DNA of 63,731 nt, filler included, from Reticulomyxa filosa (taxonomy: Eukaryota; Protista; Foraminifera), in assembly GCA_000512085.1 (NCBI GenBank). It is 24 parts of 24 records of this genome, joined end to end, with 100 filler letters (N's around TTAATTAATTAA, not from the genome) between each part and the next. Parts side by side here need not be neighbours in the genome. Positions count along the whole stretch, not along the records: positions 14,716 to 19,279 come from ASPP01043485.1; 23 more parts are not named here. One strand, given 5' to 3'. The notes below the pieces were generated by a model that was not told where the DNA came from, did not search any database, and saw only the letters and a list, made by a program, of their open reading frames with translations. The position numbers and the translations under genes are program-made. Each line of letters starts with the position of its first letter. Positions within the stretch are counted from its first letter, which is position 1. Positions 1 through 59,348 of the stretch are shown piece after piece.

Positions 1-269
1 AAAAAAAAAAAAAAACAAATAAAAAAAAACAAACAATAAACACGCACACCGCCCACAATTGAGCGTTATAAATGCTGTGTTTATTCGTTTACGTCACATG
101 CAACAAAAAGCACATGATTTGGAAACGGACGCAGAAGTCAAAAAAAGAGTCAAGCAATTGAAAATCGTTGGTATGTAACCAATTTTCACATATACCATTG
201 TGGTTGACAGCCTCAATTGTACTGCCAATTCAAAATCAACATGTCTTCTGTGAATAGAACTTGTCACGA

Positions 270-1687
270 CTTAGTCTTGTGTATCCAACTTGTTTGAAGG
301 CGGAGATAATCCTTCACAGGTCCCGTTGACATTATGAATTGTCAATACTCGGTCTTCTCGCAGCGCTACATCCCTGCAAAAAAAAAAAAAAAAAAGCATA
401 ACACATTAATTGTGGTCACAATAAAGCCTTTTGTTTTTTGTCAAATGTAATACGAAACTGCTCTTTTTTTTCATTGCTTGGTATGACGAGCAACCGTTTT
501 TTATGAATACTTGAAAGGGTTGTTTTTACCAACGACGCATAACTCTTTGCAGAACCATTGCTATTTGGCTGGTAATGATCAAAAGGATTGGTCGAGGTTC
601 GTTCAGTGGGGATCATTGGTTTTTTTTGCCATGAATTTTTGCGAATTTCCATCACTTGGGTCAACATGTTTTGAATTCTGGTTTCGCCCTGGGGTTGCAT
701 TTGGCACTTTACGTTCATACGATCAAAATACACTTGAATCTGCGCGTTTTGAGTCAAATCAAGTCTGTGTCCATATCTCATGAGGATCTCACATACCATG
801 GTCCATGACCACTCTTCGTCTTTATCCATCAACGACAGCATAAACAAGTGAATACGGTCAAATTCCAGGCATTGGCGCAAATGCAGTTCCATCATGAAAG
901 ACATATTTGAAATCATATCCTTCAGCCAGCTTGCAGGTGATTTACTTTTTTGGCTCGAATAAATAGCAAACCCCAAAGAAATTTGCACACACAAAGTTAC
1001 CAGACTAATGTTCCTTTTTTCCACGACAACCCCATTTTGTGAACTCTGGGTTTCGTTTCCAACCGCTTCCAAAGACAACTCATCCAAAGTCAAGTTCAAA
1101 TTGGCATTTAAAGTATCGGATTGTCCGCATTGATGTTTCATGTCTGCAACCGTTTGGTTAAAAAAATTCTGAAATTCTTTATCACTTGCCTCAAAACTGA
1201 ACGAGGGCCAGTTGTTTGAGAGTTGAACTAAAAACTCACAACACAGTCGCAAGTTACACTTTTTACCAATTACACTACGATGTGCTTTGTGTGCTGCTCG
1301 ATAAAGTGTGTGCGGATGGTAAATAGGCGCAACAGAACACTCGGTGACAAAACACTTTACATTTTTCCAAGTCAATTTGTCCAAGTGAACACAAATTTGT
1401 TTGACCGGGTCGTACGCATTTGTTGTCGATGTTGTGTTCGCTGCCGCCCCCTTATCTGCTGTTCGGAACACTTCATTTCCTTTCAGATTCGATTTCAGAC
1501 TACCTCCGGCTGTTCCTGGTAACATTTCTGCTGGGGTTACGAGGCTATTCATCTCGGCCAAAGGGGTTGGCAAATTGGACGCCCCACATTGCAGGAATGG
1601 TAGCTGCGACATCAACTGAGCAAACGCATTTTGGCTTTGTTCTTTCGAATCACCCACATTTTTCGTCATTAGTCCTTTTGGCACCAT
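270..1687 (-). CDS. MIF4G-domain (eIF4G-like) protein, 5' partial, with a probable last intron at about 368-510
   Basis: LDKLTWKN at the domain start; CEILMRYGHRLD...YFDRM...RIQNMLTQVMEIRKNSW matches the MIF4G C-terminal pattern. A poly-T/CAG acceptor near 368 leads to a short last exon. Confidence 0.7.
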
Positions 1688-1755
1688 CGATTGTGGATCT
1701 ACTCCACACGTTCCTAACTATTTTTTATTTTTATTTTTATTTATATTTATATATA

Positions 1756-1855
1756 NNNNNNNNNNNNNNNNNNNNNNNNNNNNNNNNNNNNNNNNNNNNT
1801 TAATTAATTAANNNNNNNNNNNNNNNNNNNNNNNNNNNNNNNNNNNNNNNNNNNN
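1756..1855. other. Artificial contig linker (N44-TTAATTAATTAA-N44). First of 23; others start at about 3880, 6884, 11572, 13014, 14616, 19280, 22136, 23680, 25915, 27314, 28512, 32343, 35152, 37788, 46378, 47928, 50275, 51439, 55811, 57603, 60093, 61789
   Basis: Identical 100-nt N-flanked spacer with stops in all six frames, repeated throughout. Confidence 0.98.
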
Positions 1856-2285
1856 TGTGAAGGTATTGATAATCCAAGACATACAATGCCACGATATTTA
1901 CTATCTAACCTGATGGAAACTCAATCATTTGAAAAGATTGTATTGCATTCATTGACAAGAATTGCTTCCAGATATCAATGTATTGTCCCTGTCGATGAAA
2001 CAATTCATTATTGGTGATCGATTGTGGAAACCAGATGTCCGGATTAAAGTTATGAAAGCAGCAGCCAAGTTCGTAGTCAATACCAAGAGAAGGATTTGAA
2101 TAATTGTCAAGTTTCTCAAGAAATCTCAATTTAAATTGAAAGAAATAGAACACAGTACTCAAAAAAGAAACACAAAAATAATATAAAGACACACAAAATC
2201 TTACAACGACCAAAAAGGTCAATGCAAAAAATAATCAAAAGAAAAACAATAAAGTTATTAGAACGAGGTGCTCTTTTAACTAGAA
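1856..2285 (+). mobile_element. Decayed 3' end of a non-LTR retrotransposon, related to the element at 2383-3879
   Basis: Translates as PRYL.SNLMETQSFEKIVLH, similar to KRYLRNLIEAQPFEKIVLH at about 3410-3465. Pieces recur at 26371-26600. Confidence 0.7.
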
Positions 2286-2382
2286 AGACCTGAGTTTGTA
2301 CAGGTAGAGAGGGCAAAAAGCAGTGCGAGTTGAGGATGAAGCGAGAGAATAGTCCAACACTTGACAGCCCCTAAAAAAAAAT

Positions 2383-3879
2383 TCACACATCGTTCGACAA
2401 GAATGGAGTATCGTACGCAGTGCTGCTTGACATCTCATCCGCGTATGATGTGTGGAGAGATGGACTGAGATACAATATGAGACATGAATTTAATTTGAAA
2501 GGAAGAATGTATTGGCGATTGGACAGTTTCCTCAAAGACAGAACTGGACAAGTTGTGTTGAATGGAATCAGCTTCAGCATGAAACAGTTCGGAACAGGAG
2601 TGCCACAAGAATCTTTGTTATTCCTGCTGTACATCAATGACATTACACAAGCAGTCTAGAGTCCAATCCAGTGTGGATGTTCGCAGATGATGTTGCGCTG
2701 TGGATATCAATTTACACAAGTGATAAAAAAGAAATGGAATTACAATTGGATCAATTTCAATTTCACCTTTGGGTATTTCTTCTTGTTCATCTTGAATGTG
2801 ATCGACTGGGTCTTATCTGGGCCAACAGCATCTTCCATTTTGATGCTGATACATTATCCAAACTCAATTGCAACGAATGGAAATAACATTGAAGAAGCAG
2901 ATAATGTCAAGTATTTGTGATTGATCATTGATTCCAGATGACATTTCAGCATCAAATCAACTACGTGTATGGAAAAGCAGCAAGGAAATTGGGATATTTG
3001 ACATTCCTGTGTTCGTACAAAGGAATCAGGGCCGAGTTTAAGTGTTTACAATCTATTGTACAAGACAATAATCAGACCATCATTGGAATATGCGTGTGCA
3101 TTCTGGAATGGTGATTGTCAGAACAAGGATGAAAGAGTCGTTATTTTTTCTGATTGTAAATCTGTTGTAAACTCAGTTCTCAACAAGTGCAATTCAGAGA
3201 CTTATAATTTCCAGATGGAATAAACGAGCAGATGCAGTGGTGAAGAAAGCAAGATTCAAAGCTGAGATGGATCAACCTGATCTCTATCGAAGACCAGATA
3301 AAAGCGCGTCGTTATTAAATTTCCATAGACTGAACACATTCTTCGTGGAAGAATGGAACAGACATTTGACGAATGAAGGAAATGAACTGCAGCCGCACAA
3401 GCACACGAAACGATATTTACGCAATCTGATTGAAGCCCAGCCATTTGAAAAGATCGTGCTCCACAAGTTGGAAGTACACAAACGCAGATTTGTGTGCAGA
3501 GTGATTACAGGCAAAGTGGAATTGAATGGATTCCTGTTCAAGATTAAACGGTCACAGACACCAGATTGCAAATGGTGTGGAGATGAAGAAGAAGAAACTG
3601 TGGAGCATTTCCTAATGGAATGTCCACATTATGAAGGACTTAGGAATGTATGGTGAGCAGCAATCAAGATATTGTTGCCGCATTTCGAATTCAAGAGATC
3701 GAACCTGAAAAGTTTGGTGGTTGATGACAAGACATGGGAACCTAAGACAAGAATAAAAGTCGTCTTTTTTTTTATAGCAAGAATGAGATCATATCCAAGT
3801 TAAAATGAGCACCTCGTCCCAAAAGGAACACACTGCTCTAATGAAAACAAACAAAAAATGGAAAAGATCAACAAAACAT
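2383..3879 (+). mobile_element. Degenerate non-LTR (LINE) retrotransposon: RT, RNase H remnant and C-terminal CCHC (I/Ingi/Tad1-like layout)
   Basis: LLDISSAYD, GVPQ..LLFLLYIND, FADD, VKYL, LYKTIIRPSLEYACAFW, VIFSDCKS (RNase H), CKWC...ETVEHFLMEC. Broken by stops, frameshifts, deletions and an inversion. Confidence 0.92.
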
Positions 3880-3979
3880 NNNNNNNNNNNNNNNNNNNNN
3901 NNNNNNNNNNNNNNNNNNNNNNNTTAATTAATTAANNNNNNNNNNNNNNNNNNNNNNNNNNNNNNNNNNNNNNNNNNNN

Positions 3980-4232
3980 AAAAGTAAAGAAGCGATTTGC
4001 AGTGACGACAGACAATATGTCATATCTTCACACCAACATGAAGATTCAACATGATCAATTTTCGACTTGGAATATCCAACAAGCTGTCGACAACATACCT
4101 CAAGTGCAATGGCATGCATCTACGCCATTCCACTGCAAATGGTACCCCGGCTACTTTGCCACCAATGTCAAAGGACGGCCCTTTGGGGTGTGTTCTTCCA
4201 ACATCCACATGCTCAAAAGAGCTCTCCAATAA
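3980..4232 (+). CDS. 3' end of an unidentified protein gene
   Basis: Open frame from the contig start with coding-like composition, followed by an AT-rich UTR. Confidence 0.4.
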
Positions 4233-4626
4233 TTTTTTGGTTTCAAAAACATTTCAATAAAACAGGAGAGAAAAAAGAGCCTAGCCTTATGTTACAAAAA
4301 AAAAAGGGGTTTTGCAAGTGATTTTTATATAACTTTAATAAAAAAGAAGTTGAACTTTTTTTTATTTTGTCGAGCACACAAGTAATAATTGCATTAAAAA
4401 AATAGCAAAATTGGGTATTTTGATAAAACAACACTAAATCAATCAAACAAAACAATTAAATATCGCATTCAATGCACATTTGAACGAGAGAAGGTTATAA
4501 CACAAAGGAACCAAGGAGAGAGATTTTCGAAACATTGAGAATATATTGAAGTAAAACTTGTTTCAAAAAAAATAATTTTTATTTACTTGTTTGTTTGATT
4601 TGGTGTGAGCGAGCCAAGGTTTCAGT

Positions 4627-5317
4627 TTATTGATCAACACTAATCATCTGCACACCACCAGTAGTTCTGAATCTTTGTTCTCTTTGGGCTTGCATGGCCT
4701 CCACAGACAGTGGGACGATCTTTTCGGCTTGATGAAGGCGCTGTCTTTTGAGTTTTTCTTGAATCAGTTGATATTTTTTAATTTTGTCCTTCGTATCTAC
4801 ACTCGTTTTTTTTTCTTGGTCATCACGTCCTAACCCTGCACAAGCATCTGCTTCTCTTTGAGTGTATTTCGGCTGGGCTACTTTTTTCAACCTTTTTTTT
4901 TTTTTGGAAATGGGGGGGGGAGACAAAAAAGAAAAGTTCGCAAATTTTCTTTTTTTTTTTTTAAAAAAAAAAAGGTAATAACGTGCATTTTTCTGTGTTT
5001 CTTGCTTTGTTTATGTACTTGTAGCGTCTCCTCGGTGATGAAGTACCGACCACACATTAGACACTTAAATTGACCCATCCCAGGCTTGTCGACGTCGGGT
5101 AGCTCTGGTTTATTTGTACTTGCTTGAATACTTTCAATTTCGTCTTGTATCTTTTTTTTTGTTGTTGTCCTCGAGGAGTGCTTTTTGACCTTGTGTTGTG
5201 ACTTAATACCTGATCAACATCTTTGGTTTTTTCATATCTTCTCTTGGTTCGGCGCCAACGCTTTTCAAAAGTACGCTTTCTTTTTGTTCCACCACCACCA
5301 CCAGCGCGTGGGCCCAT
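4627..5317 (-). CDS. BUD20: Zinc-finger ribosome biogenesis factor ZNF593/Bud20, 3 exons
   Basis: TKDVDQ|IQDEI...PDVDKPGMGQFKCLMCGRYF...HKQSKKHRK...RLKKVAQPKYTQREADACAGLG, with GT-AG introns. Confidence 0.9.
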
Positions 5318-14715: not shown

Positions 14716-15273
14716 TGTGTGTGCATTATGTTCTTGTATTTGTGCTGCAAAATTGTCGCACGTGTTGTTTATTGCATTAGATTGTTTGTCGTCAATGTGG
14801 AGCATTTGTTGTGTTAGTTGGTCTAGTATGTTGCAGGTTCTGATGTTAGGTATACTTACTTTTTTCTTGATTTGTTCTTCAAGAAGTATATTCCTAATTT
14901 TTGCGTCGATGTTGTTGTTGTACGTTTGTATTGCGTTGTACGTACTGTTTTTGAGAGGGTTGTGTGTGTTGTTATACGTATTTGTTTGATAGGGTGAGAA
15001 GTTCTTCCCTTTTGCAATTTGCTCGATGATTTCGAGGGGAATTTGTTTGTTGGTGAGTATTGTGACTTTTTCTTTGAGAATATCGGTCACGTATTGCAGA
15101 TTTTGTTGGTGTATGTTTTCTTTGTTGGAATTTTTGCGAGAAAATATGGTTTTGTTGTTGTGTATGATGAGTTTTGCGAGTTGGAGATGTGTTTTGTTTT
15201 TTGCCGGTGCCTTTGAACGTTTTTTTGGGGGTTCAAGGGTGTCGGTTCTTAAACAAAAAAAGACGGCCTTTTT
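14716..15273 (-). CDS. ORF2 of the telomere-associated element: N-terminal region of a putative Penelope-like reverse transcriptase, 3' truncated by the contig end
   Basis: Open from about 15273 to the contig end in the -1 frame of ORF1, with no ATG near its start. VTILTNKQIPLEIIEQIAKGKNFSP resembles the PLE RT N-terminal motif (V.NLS...L...e...L.kG.nF.P). Confidence 0.6.
15205..15261 (-). promoter_or_regulatory. Putative programmed -1 ribosomal frameshift signal: U_UUU_UUU at 15261-15255 plus a downstream stem-loop
   Basis: ORF1 ends TCT TTT TTT GTT TAA and ORF2 reads GTC TTT TTT TGT TTA. Downstream CCTTGAAC...GTTCAAAGG can pair. Confidence 0.55.
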
Positions 15274-18200
15274 TCAAAGTTTGTGTGCCTTGCATCTCTA
15301 TAAAGGTTCCGGTTAGTTGCATGGTAGTTCCTTCTAAAGGTTTGCCAAGGTCTTTGTGTAGTTGGAGAGTTGTTATTTTGACTTTGAAAGTCTGTTTGTT
15401 GACTTGGTTGGTTTATTTGTTGACTGTGTGTGTGATTATAGGCTTCTTGCATTTCTCTAGCTTCACACTGGTTGTGCCAGTGATTTCCTCCACATTTTCT
15501 GCATGGCGATGGAGGCTCTGTGTGTTTGCCTCTCGCATTGTTCTCTGTACATTGATCTGTACCTCTTATATGATTTTTTATGTGCGAACTTGCGTTGTTG
15601 TGAGTTTGCTGTCTCATGTTCCAGTTTGTTCTTTTCTGGTTATTCCGGCCTTCTCTGCGTTGAAACATTCCTCTTTTTCCCCTTTGGGGCTGCGACATAA
15701 ATTTATTGTGTTGTGTTGTGAAGTTGTTGCGTTGCGACATTGCGTCACTGTGAATGTGATTGTTTTGTGTTGCCTCTGTAGCTATGGGGCATTGATTGTG
15801 CCAGTGCATTTCATTGCAGAATTTGCAAGGTTTTGTTGGCATTTTGGTTTGATTGTTTTGCCATCTGTTGGGAATGTTTGGCTTTTTGTTGAGAATGTTT
15901 GGCTTTCTGAAATTGGGTGCATTTGGATGTTGGTATTTGTTGTTTGTAGCACGATTCATGTTGTGTTCATTGCTTTGATGATTAAAGCGATGGTGCTTTT
16001 GAGTTTTGAATTGATTATTTTTATTTTTCCAATGAGATATATCTGTTCTGGTCCTGTTCTTTACTATGTTTTCTCTGCACTCATTATTCCAGTGGTTGCC
16101 GTTGCAGTATTTGCATGGTGTTGGTGGTATGTTTTGTGTGCTCTTTGATATGTTTGTTGCGTTTTGTTCCATTTTGTTGTTTTGTGTGTTGTTTGTGCTT
16201 TCAGAACATTCACTATCCCAGTGTTTACCATTACAGTGCTTGCATGGCCGTGTTGGTATACGTTTTATAGTTTTGTATATATATTTTTGACCTGCACCTT
16301 GTATGTTGTTTTGTTGTATATTGGATTGCCTGTTGATATGATTGTTTTGTTGTATGTTGTGTTGACTATTTATGTGACTATTTTGTTGCTCATTGTTTTG
16401 TCCATGCATATTGACGTCGATGTTTTGTGTTCTTTGTTTGCATATAGAATGATGATGTTTTTTGTCTCCGCAATATTTGCATTTGTATTCGGGGCAGTCT
16501 TGGAACCAATGAAATGCATTTTTATCACAATTGATGCAAGTGTTTTTTGGTGTATTGTGTGGTTGTATTGATTGGCATGTGTATATGTTGTGTCCAATTT
16601 TATTGCATCTCATGCATTTGACATTTAGGTTATTTTCATTGAGGATCCTGTCCATTATGATATTTTCTTTTCTCATGGTGGATTGTTTGATGGCAGCCTT
16701 AACTTTTTCATCGATTTGTATTGGTGGTGCGGCGTTGATACATGTATGAAAATAATAATTTAAATTGTCATATGTATTTTGATTTGGTTGTATGTTTTGT
16801 ATATTATTTTTGATTGCATGTAATGTTTCTTGTATTTCAAGAAGTTTGGATAAGAGTTGTGTTAGATATGCAAATGTTCTCATTTCTCTTATTTTGGCTT
16901 GATTGAGTTGTATGCATTTAGTTTTGATTTTTGTGTCGTTGCATTGTATGATAGGTTGTGTTACTTTCCATCTTATCCGTAGTTGGTTTGCAATTTTGAT
17001 TGCATAGCTTTGACATAGTCTCAGGTTCGAACACATTTTTATTATCCATGTACTTATTTTTGTTGTATTGTGGTCCATGTCTGCAGATGTATCAATGTCT
17101 TTTGTGCATGTATTTTGTATTTTTAATTTTTGTAGGATTTCTGGCAGCTGTGTGCATATGTCATTGATTACGTTGTCGTATTCGCCTGCATCATGATTGG
17201 TTGCGTATATGGTGCTCCAGAGTATGGCGTTTATATTTGTTCCATCGTTGTATATTGCAGAGTTTTGTTTTAGTACCCCGAATTCCTTGAAATCAATGTG
17301 TGTGTTGCTCTGTGTATTTGTTATTGTTTGTTTTAGCCATTGTATGGCGATGATTGGATTTATTTTATCAAATTCATTTTCGTTGTTTTCGTTGATTTTG
17401 CATTCGATAGGCGTTGTGTGTTGCTGCTGCTCATTATTATTTTGAGGCTCATAATTTTGAGGCTCATGTTCCTGTTGCTCATCATTTTGTGATTCATTTT
17501 TGTGTTCCTCATGATTATCATCGATGTTAATATTAATGTCATTTTCAGTGTTATTAATATTATTAATATCATTTTCAATGTTATTAATATTATTATTATT
17601 AATATTGGTATTGATATTGTTTTCCTGTGCCCTATTTTGTGAAGTGTTTGCTGCATCATTATTTTGTGAATTGTTTTGTGAGTTGTTTTGTAGATTGCTT
17701 TGTGTGTTATTATCTTGTTGTGATATATTATTAATGAGTTGTTGTGTGTTGTTACTGATTATTGTTTCAGCTATGGATGTATTTTCATCATCGATATTAT
17801 TAATATTATTATTGTTGTTATTACTACTATTATTATTAATAATTTGTTGTCGCCTATTATTTAATATTTCATGCCGTTGCGTTTTTCGTAGATCGTTCCT
17901 TTCATCGAACCTTTGTTGTTGGCTGCCATAGAGGTTTGTTGTTTGAAATGGTCTTTGTGTGTTATCATTTATATTGTTTGTATCCATCTTTGCCATTTGT
18001 CCAATGAAGTTCCTATTGTGTCGTGTGTTTTGAAGGCTGTATGTGTTGTTGTTTTTGAAGTTATACGTGTTGCTGTTGCCATTTTCGGAGTTATACGTGT
18101 TGTTGTTGCCGTTTTCGGAGTTATACGTTGTGTTATTATTGCTGTTTCCGGAGTTGTTGTTTCCGGAGTTGCTGTTTTCGGATTTGATTTGTGTTGTATT

Positions 18201-18854
18201 GTGTGTTTTTGTGTGTGTTTGCGAATTTTGTTTTTTAGCAATGTTTGCGAATTTTGTATTGCTGGGTTTGTTGAACATTGTTAGAATACTGTCGGGTTGT
18301 ATTTCTTCGTTTGGAACCCTCTCGCTGGTCCTGTTGATGTATACGACAAATCCATTATCGTATTGTGTTACATTTGTCACTCTCCATTGTGCCGATGTTA
18401 TTCTTTGGATACTTCTTTTGAGGTTGGTTAATCGGATTTCATCGTACATTTCGTTTTGCATGATTATTTCATGTATTCGGTTTTGTACGTATCTGAAGTG
18501 TGTTGCTTTCCATGGTTCGCTGTTGTTGCTTTTTTTCTCAATGTTTTCTGCAGTTATTGAGCCTTCTGAAAATTTGACAAATGTCCATACTGTTTCTGTT
18601 GCCTGTTCAAGCTGCTGTGAAACACAGATCATTTGTTTTATGTTATCTGTTTCGTCTCCATTATTGGAGATCCATGTGATGCTTTTGAGTTGCTTTACTG
18701 CAACTTTCATTGTTTGTTCAGTGTTGCCTGGTAGTTGTTGTTGTTGTTGTTTGTCAAATGGAAGATGCGAAAAAGCATGACCATTTTTTTGCACTTTCAC
18801 AGATTTTTTGAAGTGTTGTATTTGCTTGGGGTTTAGGGGTTTGGCTTTCTTCAT
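15249..18854 (-). CDS. ORF1: 1201-aa intronless Gag-like protein with seven CCHC zinc knuckles and N/Q-rich low-complexity linkers
   Basis: CMRCNKIGHNIYTC, CINCDKNAFHWFQDC, CKYCGDKKHHHSIC, CKHCNGKHWDSEC, CKYCNGNHWNNEC, CKFCNEMHWHNQC, CRKCGGNHWHNQC. Confidence 0.88.
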   Translation of the reverse strand: MKKAKPLNPKQIQHFKKSVKVQKNGHAFSHLPFDKQQQQQLPGNTEQTMKVAVKQLKSITWISNNGDETDNIKQMICVSQQLEQATETVWTFVKFSEGSITAENIEKKSNNSEPWKATHFRYVQNRIHEIIMQNEMYDEIRLTNLKRSIQRITSAQWRVTNVTQYDNGFVVYINRTSERVPNEEIQPDSILTMFNKPSNTKFANIAKKQNSQTHTKTHNTTQIKSENSNSGNNNSGNSNNNTTYNSENGNNNTYNSENGNSNTYNFKNNNTYSLQNTRHNRNFIGQMAKMDTNNINDNTQRPFQTTNLYGSQQQRFDERNDLRKTQRHEILNNRRQQIINNNSSNNNNNNINNIDDENTSIAETIISNNTQQLINNISQQDNNTQSNLQNNSQNNSQNNDAANTSQNRAQENNINTNINNNNINNIENDINNINNTENDININIDDNHEEHKNESQNDEQQEHEPQNYEPQNNNEQQQHTTPIECKINENNENEFDKINPIIAIQWLKQTITNTQSNTHIDFKEFGVLKQNSAIYNDGTNINAILWSTIYATNHDAGEYDNVINDICTQLPEILQKLKIQNTCTKDIDTSADMDHNTTKISTWIIKMCSNLRLCQSYAIKIANQLRIRWKVTQPIIQCNDTKIKTKCIQLNQAKIREMRTFAYLTQLLSKLLEIQETLHAIKNNIQNIQPNQNTYDNLNYYFHTCINAAPPIQIDEKVKAAIKQSTMRKENIIMDRILNENNLNVKCMRCNKIGHNIYTCQSIQPHNTPKNTCINCDKNAFHWFQDCPEYKCKYCGDKKHHHSICKQRTQNIDVNMHGQNNEQQNSHINSQHNIQQNNHINRQSNIQQNNIQGAGQKYIYKTIKRIPTRPCKHCNGKHWDSECSESTNNTQNNKMEQNATNISKSTQNIPPTPCKYCNGNHWNNECRENIVKNRTRTDISHWKNKNNQFKTQKHHRFNHQSNEHNMNRATNNKYQHPNAPNFRKPNILNKKPNIPNRWQNNQTKMPTKPCKFCNEMHWHNQCPIATEATQNNHIHSDAMSQRNNFTTQHNKFMSQPQRGKRGMFQRREGRNNQKRTNWNMRQQTHNNASSHIKNHIRGTDQCTENNARGKHTEPPSPCRKCGGNHWHNQCEAREMQEAYNHTHSQQINQPSQQTDFQSQNNNSPTTQRPWQTFRRNYHATNRNLYRDARHTNFEKRPSFFV
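18055..18180 (-). repeat. Short coding tandem repeats in ORF1 (30-bp TYNSENGNNN-type and 15-bp NSGNN-type units)
   Basis: Repeated TTTTCGGAGTTATACGTG and TTTCCGGAGTTG on the + strand. Confidence 0.8.
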
Positions 18855-19237
18855 TATTTACTGTGCCAGTGCTGTGTGTAGCGTTGTTCTCGCTGAGATG
18901 ATCGCGCAAGCGATCATTTTCTCTATTATTGCTAGCCATCTATGGGCTGTGTTGCTGTTGCTGGTACAAAGGAAGGTTTTAAAGAAGAACTGATACTCTT
19001 TCAACGAGACACTAGTGGCGTCCAAGCGGACTCTGTGCTCTTTTGTTTTTAATTAAACAAGAAAGAAAAGTTGAAACAAGAGTTGAAACACTGAACGAAA
19101 AAACCAGGGGTTCTTCTGAACCTTTGTATTTCCTTTGTAAAATTTGGTGTGGTGTGTGTTTTGCTTTGAATTTGTTTGGAACTTTGATATTTTGCTTAGA
19201 GCTTTGTAGTTTTGCTTAGGGTTTTGAGTTTTGATTT

Positions 19238-19279
19238 GCTTAGGGCTTAGGGCTTAGGGCTTAGGGCTTAGGGCTTAGG
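19238..19279 (+). repeat. Telomere-like repeat (GCTTAGG)6, i.e. TTAGGGC units, running to the contig end
   Basis: Six perfect 7-mers with the G-rich strand pointing 5'->3' to the end. Isolated or degenerate units at 19194-19202 and 19214-19221. Confidence 0.8.
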
Positions 19280-57720: not shown

Positions 57721-59348
57721 ATGGATATCGTTGCCAATGCTTCGCACTTCAATGCCGACGTCGACATGAAAAATGGAGTCGAAAGTCGCAGTACACATGT
57801 GATCAATAACGAAGGTGGCAACTCGATGATGACGATGATAGGCGTCGATATGGACAAGATGACAAAGGCAATCTCGAGTGGGTCAAGCGGACAGGACAAC
57901 TTTGGTACGTCCTCCTCCTTCTCTTCTTTGCAATCGCACATGCAAATCAATAAACCCGCGCACATTATTACGCTCGCCCCTCCGTGTATCGTCGACTCGA
58001 GCCTCGCAGACGGACTTAATGTTAATGCTACCACGAACAGCAATCTGAACACGCATACACATTTGAACAATAACAATGGCAACACCGGCGTCGGCTCCAA
58101 CACGGGCGAGGGAGGAGATGAGGTCACTGTGCTGTTGGAAACCACCGGCACGGCGTTGGCGGCACAATCCAAAGTTCCTGCACCTTTGTTACAGCCTGGA
58201 ATGACGTCTAATTTGTTGCTCATGGGCAATCACGACCCATCCGGCGCTTCCGCGTCCAATGACAATATCAACAACATTGTCATGGAAATGGAAAACCCAA
58301 AGGAAATTATGGAAAAAAGAAAGGTGTTGCTTAAAAAGTTTAAGGAATATCTCAAAGAATTGGACTTGATCGACTCGGATCGCAAAAAAAAAGGAGGGAG
58401 GAACGTCGGAGAAAGGCAAGAGAGCGCGAACGAGAACGGGAAAAGGAGAGGGAAAAGAAAAGAAAAAGAAAAAGAGAAGGAAAAGAAAAGGAGAGAGAGC
58501 GGGAAAGGGAAAAGAGAAGGAAAGAGAAAAGAGAAGGAAAGAGAAAAAGAGAAAGAAAAAGAGAGAGAGCGAGAGAGAGAAAAGGAAAAAGAAAAAGAAA
58601 AAGAAAAAGAGAGAGAGAAAGAAAAAGAGAAAGAGAAAGAAAAAGAAAAAGAAAAAGAAAGAGAAAGAGAAAAGGAAAAGGAGAGGGAGAAAGAGAAAGA
58701 AAAAGAAAAAGAGAGAGAAAGGGAACGCGAAAGAGAAAGAGAGAAGGAAAAGGAAAGAGAAAGAGAAAGGGAAAGGGAAAAAGAAAGAGAAAGAGAAAGA
58801 GACAAAGACAAGGAAATGAGGTATGCTTTACAAAAAAAAAAAAAAATTAAATGATTATGTTAATAATAGGCAAACAACATGACAATATTTATTTGAATTG
58901 GAAAAAAAAAAAAAGAAATTTAGAAAAAGACAAATTAAAAGAAAAAGAAAAAGAAAGAGAGAAAGACAAAGAACAAGAAAAAAACAAAGAAAAAGATAAA
59001 AAAAATGCCAACAACTCAGTCTCGTCTTCACCTACCCGAAGTGACCGGGACAAAGATAGAAATAGAAAAGACAAGGACAAAGAACGAGGAGACAAAGACA
59101 GAGAAAGGGAGAGAGAAAGAGACAAAGAACGAGAAAGAGAAAAAGAGAGAGGAGATCGAGATCGAGACAGAGAAAGAGAAAGAGAGAGAGACAGAGAAAG
59201 GGACAGAGAGCGAGACAGAGAGCGCGAAGGTTACAAAGAAAAGGAAACAGAAAGAAATCGAGATCGTGACAGAGAACGGGACAAGGAAAAAGAAAGAAAT
59301 AGCAGAGACTATGATACAAGACACAAGGAGAGAGACAGAAGAAGATAA
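57721..59348 (+). CDS. Mixed-charge (RE/RD/KE-rich) low-complexity protein, intron at about 58822-58923
   Basis: Long EK/ER/DR dipeptide runs encoded by purine-only sequence with mixed codons. Confidence 0.7.

Follow-up and report, generated by a model that had tools for sequence, protein, structure and literature searches.

A contig of the foraminiferan Reticulomyxa filosa, with a telomere-like repeat at its end, a long open reading frame (ORF1) carrying CCHC zinc knuckles and an overlapping second frame (ORF2) that begins like a reverse transcriptase (RT), raised the question of what kind of mobile element it belongs to and whether that element lives at chromosome ends. The contig, a single piece of 4,564 bp, occupies positions 14716-19279 of a 63,731-nt window (the whole stretch of DNA that was analysed), a chain of small spacer-joined contigs in which it is bounded by N/TTAATTAATTAA/N spacers. 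It has a strong strand asymmetry, with an AT skew of -0.43, and bears the NCBI gene model ETN99598.1 (RFI_37872) from R. filosa, in agreement with the rhizarian host given in an earlier note on this DNA. Read on the minus strand, the contig opens with (CCCTAAG)6 and about three degenerate 20-bp units; a leader and ORF1 follow, and ORF2, which overlaps ORF1 by 25 nt, runs off the contig end (Table 1). This repeat-leader-ORF1-ORF2 anatomy and its polarity, the type of the RT, the absence of an endonuclease domain from the sister copies, and several copies and lineages were observed directly. We consider it probable that the contig is the 5′ part of an R. filosa Penelope-like element (PLE) whose RT, as found in a sister copy, is telomerase-related and endonuclease-less (EN-less). 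Exposed chromosome ends are the likely sites to which it copies itself, with TTAGGGC as the likely telomeric repeat of the host.

The window holds only the first 186 codons of ORF2, in which the stretch VTILTNKQIP...IAKGKNFSP aligns with the N-terminal motif (N1) of PLE RTs, NLS...KGLNF. The rest of the enzyme was read from a sister copy, P0003 (ETO00961.1), encoded on a 4,720-bp contig and identical to the window element at 646/753 aa of ORF1 and 165/165 aa of ORF2. Its RT is complete, with the catalytic triad intact and with motifs 1, 2, A, B′, C (YGYMDD) and E followed by a PLE-type thumb (PIIKLHK..RPIISS, GIDIKDF, GLAQGD, YGYMDD and FLDL). A phmmer search with P0003 over 1.84 billion representatives gave 155 matches at E ≤ 0.001, 150 of which were listed, and the PLE motifs N1, DKG, K.HK..RP and thumb were present in the top 25 alignment rows. 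When 36 of the 150 were scanned by domain, RVT_1 was found in 30, and GIY-YIG, the mark of endonuclease-bearing PLEs, also in 7. An AlphaFold model of the P0003 RT, built from the query and 111 of the 150 listed matches after short or redundant rows had been removed by hand, reached a pLDDT of 86, and with this model telomerases took the top 7 rows in Foldseek and the top 13 in VIA (best Z 17.6, rmsd 3.7, 324 residues aligned). A group II intron RT (Z 14.0) and R2 (Z 12.9) came next among the VIA rows, and no PLE structure was present among the rows of either search. A PDB sequence search with P0003 and a word-index search with its RT part were both blank. Motifs, matches and predicted fold together support ORF2 as an RT of the PLE/TERT group rather than of a long interspersed element (LINE) or long terminal repeat (LTR) element, as the earlier note had proposed from the N-terminal motif. 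The NCBI name of P0003, 'Bifunctional endo-1,4-beta-xylanase xylA precursor', is unsupported by motifs or Pfam.

The complete sister ORF2 consists of RT and thumb only. The RT ends a few residues past a conserved post-thumb motif in P0003, in P0005 (ETN98345.1; 226/235 aa identical and annotated as not partial) and in P0006, a relative from a metagenome; in the contig of P0006, termed L001, the stop codon is visible in the DNA, and it is for L001 alone that DNA beyond the stop was seen. The family therefore appears to lack a C-terminal GIY-YIG domain. No GIY-YIG match was obtained in P0003, P0005, P0006, ORF1 or ORF2, and the 69 aa between the start of the ORF2 frame and N1 contain neither a GIY-YIG nor a CxC motif, which answers the earlier call to look for this domain: it is absent from the sister copies and present in some of the scanned relatives. 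We hold the identity of the element as an EN-less PLE with great confidence. It could instead be argued that ORF2 is a host telomerase, given that TERTs are the best structural matches of the model, or else an LTR or LINE pol, knuckle ORFs being typical of both element types. The gene is multicopy and occurs in several lineages, however, its closest alignment rows carry PLE motifs and some of its relatives the GIY-YIG domain of PLEs, and the RT region of about 620 aa in P0003 has neither room for nor a match to APE, protease, RNase H or integrase. Both identities were rejected on the PLE motifs, the multicopy state and the size of the RT, and we regard them as extremely improbable. An LTR-type Pol, which had been named as one of the outcomes that would speak against the proposal, is not what lies downstream in the sister copy, whose ORF2 continues as an RT without protease or integrase.

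Four R. filosa contigs carry the family of the window element, and as some of them do not overlap, at least two copies are proven. Four further R. filosa proteins, some of them truncated, were found at about 30% identity (ETO07091.1, ETO07158.1, ETO09137.1 and ETN97693.1). Wherever the motifs are covered, the P0003 RT, the metagenome relatives P0006 and P0013 and these four proteins have G.[QM]G[DS].D[AS]P plus GY[MLV]DD as a common signature. These seven rows formed one group with a support of 0.983 in FastTree (111 of the 112 rows) and of 100/99 in IQ-TREE (40 of those 111). The group was picked after the first tree, it rests on long branches and includes three rows, of seven, that are odd in composition, and the trees contained no labelled Athena, Coprina or TERT sequence, so what they describe is a distinct long-branch PLE group and not its placement among the named clades. 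The four more distant R. filosa proteins (P0007-P0010), encoded on contigs of 0.8-8.3 kb, represent at least three other lineages of the RT clade.

ORF1 was described in the earlier note as an intronless frame of 1201 aa with seven knuckles, reading away from the repeats. This reading, from an ATG at 18854 to a stop at 15249 with no internal stop, is present, as are the seven knuckles and the direction; it is the start that needs correction. The paralog ETN98761.1, encoded on a 1,024-bp contig and identical to window ORF1 at 236/274 aa, is continuous from the frame of an ATG at 18939 (...HSTGTV...FFASSI) into NKQQQPGNTEQ. As this protein reads through unbroken, ORF1 appears to start at 18939, with an extra base near 18757 in the window copy; an intron cannot bridge the break because no GT follows there in the window. 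From the paralog protein we infer an ORF1 of about 1,230 aa with one extra base in a T run, and the 1201-aa reading is probably out of frame over its first 34 or so aa. The extra base is either a sequencing error or a real lesion, the window copy being accordingly either mis-sequenced or disabled. The corrected start also shortens the leader, whose presence had been noted but whose length, put at 300-380 bp, becomes about 298 nt.

The knuckles of ORF1 are of the forms CX2CX4HX4C, CX2CX5HX4C, CKYCGDKKHHHSIC and, four times, CX2CX3HX4C. The first pair is the one most like HIV-1 NCp7 (E 0.016), the spaced knuckles gave weak matches to eIF3g and zf-CCHC_5, all under the curated cut-offs, and the top ESM Atlas match for the ORF1 query, a zf-CCHC cluster at 0.81, serves as a lead only. 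The spaced knuckles may also resemble those of BEL/Pao or LINE ORF1 proteins. All seven are conserved in the sister copy ETO00961.1, where the knuckle region is identical at 378/447 aa. These matches support the nucleocapsid-like character that had been claimed for the knuckles. To speak of a retrovirus-style Gag, in contrast, was an overstatement, as the helical region before the knuckles has no capsid match. This region (aa 485-745) hit no Pfam family at E < 0.1, its two-sequence structure model (pLDDT 38) was too poor for a fold search, and Pfam was blank for ORF1 as a whole, capsid and GIY-YIG included. Protease and integrase were found neither in the window ORFs nor in the sister copy. 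The retrovirus likeness is confined to knuckles and layout, and ORF1 is at most a candidate for a Gag in the full sense.

ORF2 lies in the -1 frame, open from 15273 and overlapping ORF1 by 25 nt; together with the N1 alignment, this bears out the earlier description of an overlapping -1-frame ORF with a PLE-like RT start that runs off the contig. Within the overlap the sequence provides a heptamer of the X XXY YYZ type, U UUU UUU, with a predicted structure downstream, and a -1 ribosomal frameshift at 15255-15261 appears likely. Only 2 of 200 shuffles folded as well as the stem-loop; a simple enumeration of pseudoknots at the junction gave only candidates of 4+4 or 4+6 bp, none of them convincing. 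ORF1 and the RT could also be joined by removal of a 44-nt intron (15254-15211), which would concern the expression step only and is compatible with the PLE interpretation. Introns are known to be retained in PLEs (PMC8557442), and the NCBI models of both copies join PSFF to APAKNK as splicing would. The 44-nt stretch, however, is 43% GC and 16% T, the ORF2 frame is open across it, it folds as a stem-loop and it is directly preceded by a perfect U UUU UUU. Between the sixth and seventh knuckles, moreover, the gene model of the window contig skips some 58 aa of open ORF1 frame that the sister model retains, so the gene predictor is unreliable here. A -1 overlap is also present in L001, although L001 has several possible GT..AG pairs. 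We judge splicing to be unlikely, if a possibility to keep in view, and frameshifting to be the likely route to the RT.

L001, one of 43 candidate stretches in a single metagenome scan, encodes P0006 and is the closest relative outside R. filosa. L001 (positions 1-4929) has a perfect 123-nt direct repeat at its ends and is accordingly either a 4,806-bp circle or a collapsed tandem unit of that length. Its ORF1 likewise shares a stretch with an EN-less RT that lies in the -1 frame, and this stretch holds the heptamer A AAA AAU; the plan supports the predicted frameshift layout of the window element. Its ORF1 is helical, without a CxxC or knuckle, ends in a Lys-rich tail of 34% K+R and has no similarity to window ORF1. 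A non-coding part of 1.4 kb is strongly folded (z -4.8 and -4.1), and Rfam returned two rows only, at E 2.6 and 3.5. L001 may be an extrachromosomal or array-forming PLE. Non-coding positions 2670-2700 and 2740-2760 of L001 hold two short hairpin motifs (GGTTCGATTCC; GGTTCGGCCC) that resemble a tRNA T-arm or B-box; ARAGORN detected no tRNA in L001.

The gag-pol-like layout with nucleocapsid-like knuckles, and the direct repeat and long folded non-coding part of this circle or tandem unit, would suit a virus-like clade in which ORF1 is a true particle-forming Gag and the element also exists as a free circular replicon of DNA or RNA. A collapsed head-to-tail array accounts equally well for the terminal repeat, however, L001 ORF1 has no knuckle and no likeness to window ORF1, capsid, protease, RNase H and integrase gave no match, and P0006 found no relative in viral_contigs. 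A virus-like nature is improbable on this evidence.

The case for a telomeric PLE turns on the repeat. (GCTTAGG)6, flawless and reaching the contig end as the earlier note had reported, is the sole perfect 7-mer array of at least four copies in the window in a scan of units of at least three letters; with independent, identically distributed letters, about 1e-22 such arrays would be expected in the window. The G-rich strand of the repeat faces the contig end and the sense strand of the element begins with (CCCTAAG)n, the polarity of terminal PLEs, as in Coprina-1_Alen (PMC13159263). Next to the tract, the leader echoes the terminal repeat in its degenerate 20-bp units. The same element could nevertheless be non-telomeric, with (CCCTAAG)n as a simple repeat of its own or as an internal microsatellite, and with internal tandem arrays or entry at DNA breaks as its way of life. 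In keeping with this, the 20-bp repeats of the leader themselves contain the repeat word, no telomere-like repeat is present in L001, prokaryote assemblies contain the heptamer as an ordinary tandem repeat, and EN-minus PLE-X families located at ribosomal DNA or genome-wide are known (PMC8557442). The tract is, however, perfect, with a TTAGGG core that is G-rich toward the 5′ side of the element as in Athena and Coprina; the assembly stops inside it, and it is 57% GC in a window of 33% GC with no other such array. We regard a non-telomeric life as unlikely, though not remotely so.

Several further results weigh against a telomeric PLE or against the supports given for it above. The junction of repeat and element was observed once only, at a contig end. 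In prokaryote assemblies, at least 121 stretches hold (GCTTAGG)n arrays, mostly far from contig ends, so the motif by itself is not diagnostic of a telomere. The foraminiferal telomere repeat is undescribed, according to a 2026 paper in which telomeres are undescribed in Rhizaria except for Bigelowiella, Plasmodiophora and, tentatively, Lemnamoeba (PMC13746701), so that TTAGGGC is no more than a candidate. Rfam was blank for the leader (18940..19237), in which a relaxed motif scan found no hammerhead, and the 3′ end of the family, where a hammerhead and priming repeats would be expected, lies outside the available sequence. L001, a complete unit, has neither a telomere-like tandem repeat nor a hammerhead, and it weakens the generality of knuckles or telomeric repeats across the clade. 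As regards the RT, the DKG motif of P0003 is a DHN variant, P0003 has no Pfam RVT_1 match on its own and the AlphaFold alignment was itself made of PLE matches. As regards the frameshift, six heptamers of the slippery type are in frame among the 1201 codons of ORF1, so the signal is modest and the site counts mainly by its position. With these points included, we still hold the telomeric reading to be the probable one, with appreciable room for error.

The Rfam and relaxed hammerhead scans were likewise blank for the whole 4,564-bp contig. In viral collections, the (GCTTAGG)n scan returned 2 stretches, and the arrays in the viral and prokaryote collections together are mostly interstitial. The bacterial arrays (L004-L083) are recurrent in Brevundimonas, Hymenobacter, Acidobacteriota and Gemmatimonadales.

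The complete identity of ORF2 to the sister copy (165/165; 14716-15210), against 85-95% for ORF1 (15249-17500), may reflect gene conversion among the copies, selection that acts more strongly on the RT, or a collapse in the assembly. If the last of these applied, the contig could be an assembly mosaic or its repeat junction chimeric, the latter having also been considered in the earlier note, and the +1 break in a short T run would fit with this. Decayed repeat words in the leader beside a perfect tract would, however, not be expected of a random chimera, and the same arrangement of ORF1 and ORF2 is seen again on a second contig and in L001; we find an artefact very improbable.

For the telomeric PLE, the following cycle is proposed, in part by analogy with published systems. 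EN-minus Athena and Coprina use reverse-complement repeats and hammerheads to attach to telomeric overhangs (PMC8557442), and hammerheads occur in protist and fungal PLEs (PMC4209133). By analogy with Athena and Coprina biology, a single RNA would be read from the distal end inwards. Most ribosomes would make ORF1, a putative RNA-binding chaperone that would use its seven knuckles to coat or package the RNA, and a minority would slip by -1 at U UUU UUU, aided by the stem-loop, to give an ORF1-RT fusion. The nuclease-free RT could then prime on the free 3′-OH of the G-rich telomeric overhang, with short (CCCTAAG) words in the RNA as its guide, and the 5′ (TTAGGGC)n would come either from telomerase or from the next copy in a head-to-tail array. 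As the contig ends within the repeat tract, a telomerase-added cap and a junction to a more distal unit are indistinguishable in it. A bolder version, in which a deep PLE lineage of foraminifera and other hosts behaves like an integrase-less retrovirus, with a Gag that has a seven-knuckle nucleocapsid, a frameshifted telomerase-like RT, particles or free circles such as the 4.8-kb L001 unit, docking at (TTAGGGC)n chromosome ends and arrays that help to maintain the many ends of foraminiferal chromosomes, would be an ambitious extension to which we give little credence.

The nearest parallels are Athena and the Terminons of bdelloid rotifers, which resemble the window element in having two ORFs, an RT without GIY-YIG and an ORF1 separable by frameshift (PMC8557442, PMC6431247). 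Terminons are 5′-truncated by short telomeric repeats and lie in head-to-tail arrays (PMC6431247), and the window element likewise has telomere-like repeats at its 5′ end and might form such arrays. In contrast, the ORF1 of Athena/Terminon is coiled-coil, and the frameshift described for EN-minus PLEs involves a pseudoknot (Craig et al. 2021, PMC8557442), whereas the window element has seven CCHC knuckles and a predicted stem-loop only; the hosts, too, belong to a different supergroup from R. filosa. Coprina, known from fungi, diatoms and Selaginella, occurs with two ORFs at 13 fungal chromosome ends, the ORFs pointing inwards and the telomeric repeats flanking (PMC13159263). It shares with the window element ORFs that point away from the repeats, an RT and thumb without endonuclease, and an ORF1 in which coil and disordered regions occur (PMC13159263). 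The window element differs from it in an ORF1 of about 1,200 aa with seven knuckles, in its own RT signature (GD.D[AS]P and GY[ML]DD), in DHN for DKG/DKN and in an RT that falls in a separate long-branch clade, in a tree that had no labelled Coprina.

A zinc-knuckle ORF upstream of a PLE is not without precedent either. Chlamys-2_cBra, a PLE of Chara braunii, has an upstream gag-like zf-CCHC ORF, although Chlamys elements are defined by an N-terminal GIY-YIG plus CxC, both absent from the 69 aa before N1 in the window, and are generally genome-wide (PMC8557442). With this and the frameshifts of EN-minus PLEs, the parts of the window element are less unusual than the earlier note supposed when it contrasted the knuckle ORF with the upstream ORFs of terminal PLEs. 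Telomeric LINEs have been catalogued, among them HeT-A/TART/TAHRE of Drosophila and GilM/GilT of Giardia (PMC10088271). These have the same proposed polarity as the window element, but belong to the LINE clade, whereas the window RT is PLE-type. The ORF1 of HeT-A and TART is of the zinc-knuckle, Gag-like kind. With retroviral and LTR gag-pol the window element shares CCHC knuckles, a -1 overlapping polymerase frame and a slippery site; it differs in that no capsid match, protease, RNase H, integrase or LTR was found and in that its RT groups with PLE/TERT.

EN-less PLEs are apparently unreported in Rhizaria. No report was found in the literature searched, an earlier listing in the 2007/2017 Arkhipova papers or the R. 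filosa genome paper being possible, and neither Rhizaria nor foraminifera are mentioned in the passages of PMC8557442 consulted, in its section 12 or in a term search of one supplement. As PLE precedents exist both for a frameshifted ORF1 and for an upstream CCHC ORF, what is new is the combination and the host range, not the mechanism. If the interpretation is true, EN-less PLEs, the closest mobile relatives of telomerase, extend to Rhizaria as a distinct long-branch clade, and TTAGGGC becomes a testable candidate for the foraminiferal telomere repeat. ORF1 is suggested to be a swappable module, with nucleocapsid-like knuckles in R. filosa and a Lys-rich tail in L001 before the same frameshifted RT.

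Table 1. Features of the R. filosa element, in window coordinates
Feature	Position	Strand	Remarks
(GCTTAGG)6 = (TTAGGGC)n, candidate telomeric cap or unit junction	19238..19279	+	Perfect array at contig end
About three degenerate 20-bp units with single repeat-like words (CCCTAAGC at 19221, CTCTAAGC at 19201)	19163..19237	-	
5′ leader, about 298 nt	18940..19237	-	Weak folding, z -1.6
Probable true ORF1 start, ATG 18939 (MASNNREND...FFASSI)	18754..18939	-	Closed by TGA in window copy by extra base near 18757; paralog ETN98761.1
ORF1 body, from a globular-looking N-terminal part (to 18258) through an N/Q-rich linker to the helical and then the knuckle region	15249..18854	-	RFI_37872
Helical region, aa 485-745	16623..17405	-	Long helices in low-confidence model; 249/261 aa identical to sister copy
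Cluster of three CCHC knuckles	16440..16616	-	Best PDB sequence match HIV-1 NCp7, E 0.016
Four spaced CX2CX3HWX3C knuckles (16244-16206, 16115-16077, 15827-15789, 15503-15465)	15465..16244	-	Kept in sister copy
Putative slippery heptamer U UUU UUU	15255..15261	-	ORF1 frame, two codons before ORF1 stop
Predicted stem-loop	15204..15245	-	Begins 9 nt past slippery site; z -2.6
Sole GT..AG stretch fusing ORF1 to ORF2 in frame, 44 nt, 43% GC, 16% T	15211..15254	-	Used as intron in NCBI models
ORF2, N-terminal part of PLE-type RT, N1 motif 15066-14992	14716..15273	-	Cut by contig end; 165/165 aa identical to sister copy where aligned

Elsewhere in the window, the contig at 57703-60092 is strongly purine-skewed and contains, at 58453-59221, long (AAAAGA/AGAAAG)n tracts that probably encode a Lys/Glu/Arg-rich repeat.

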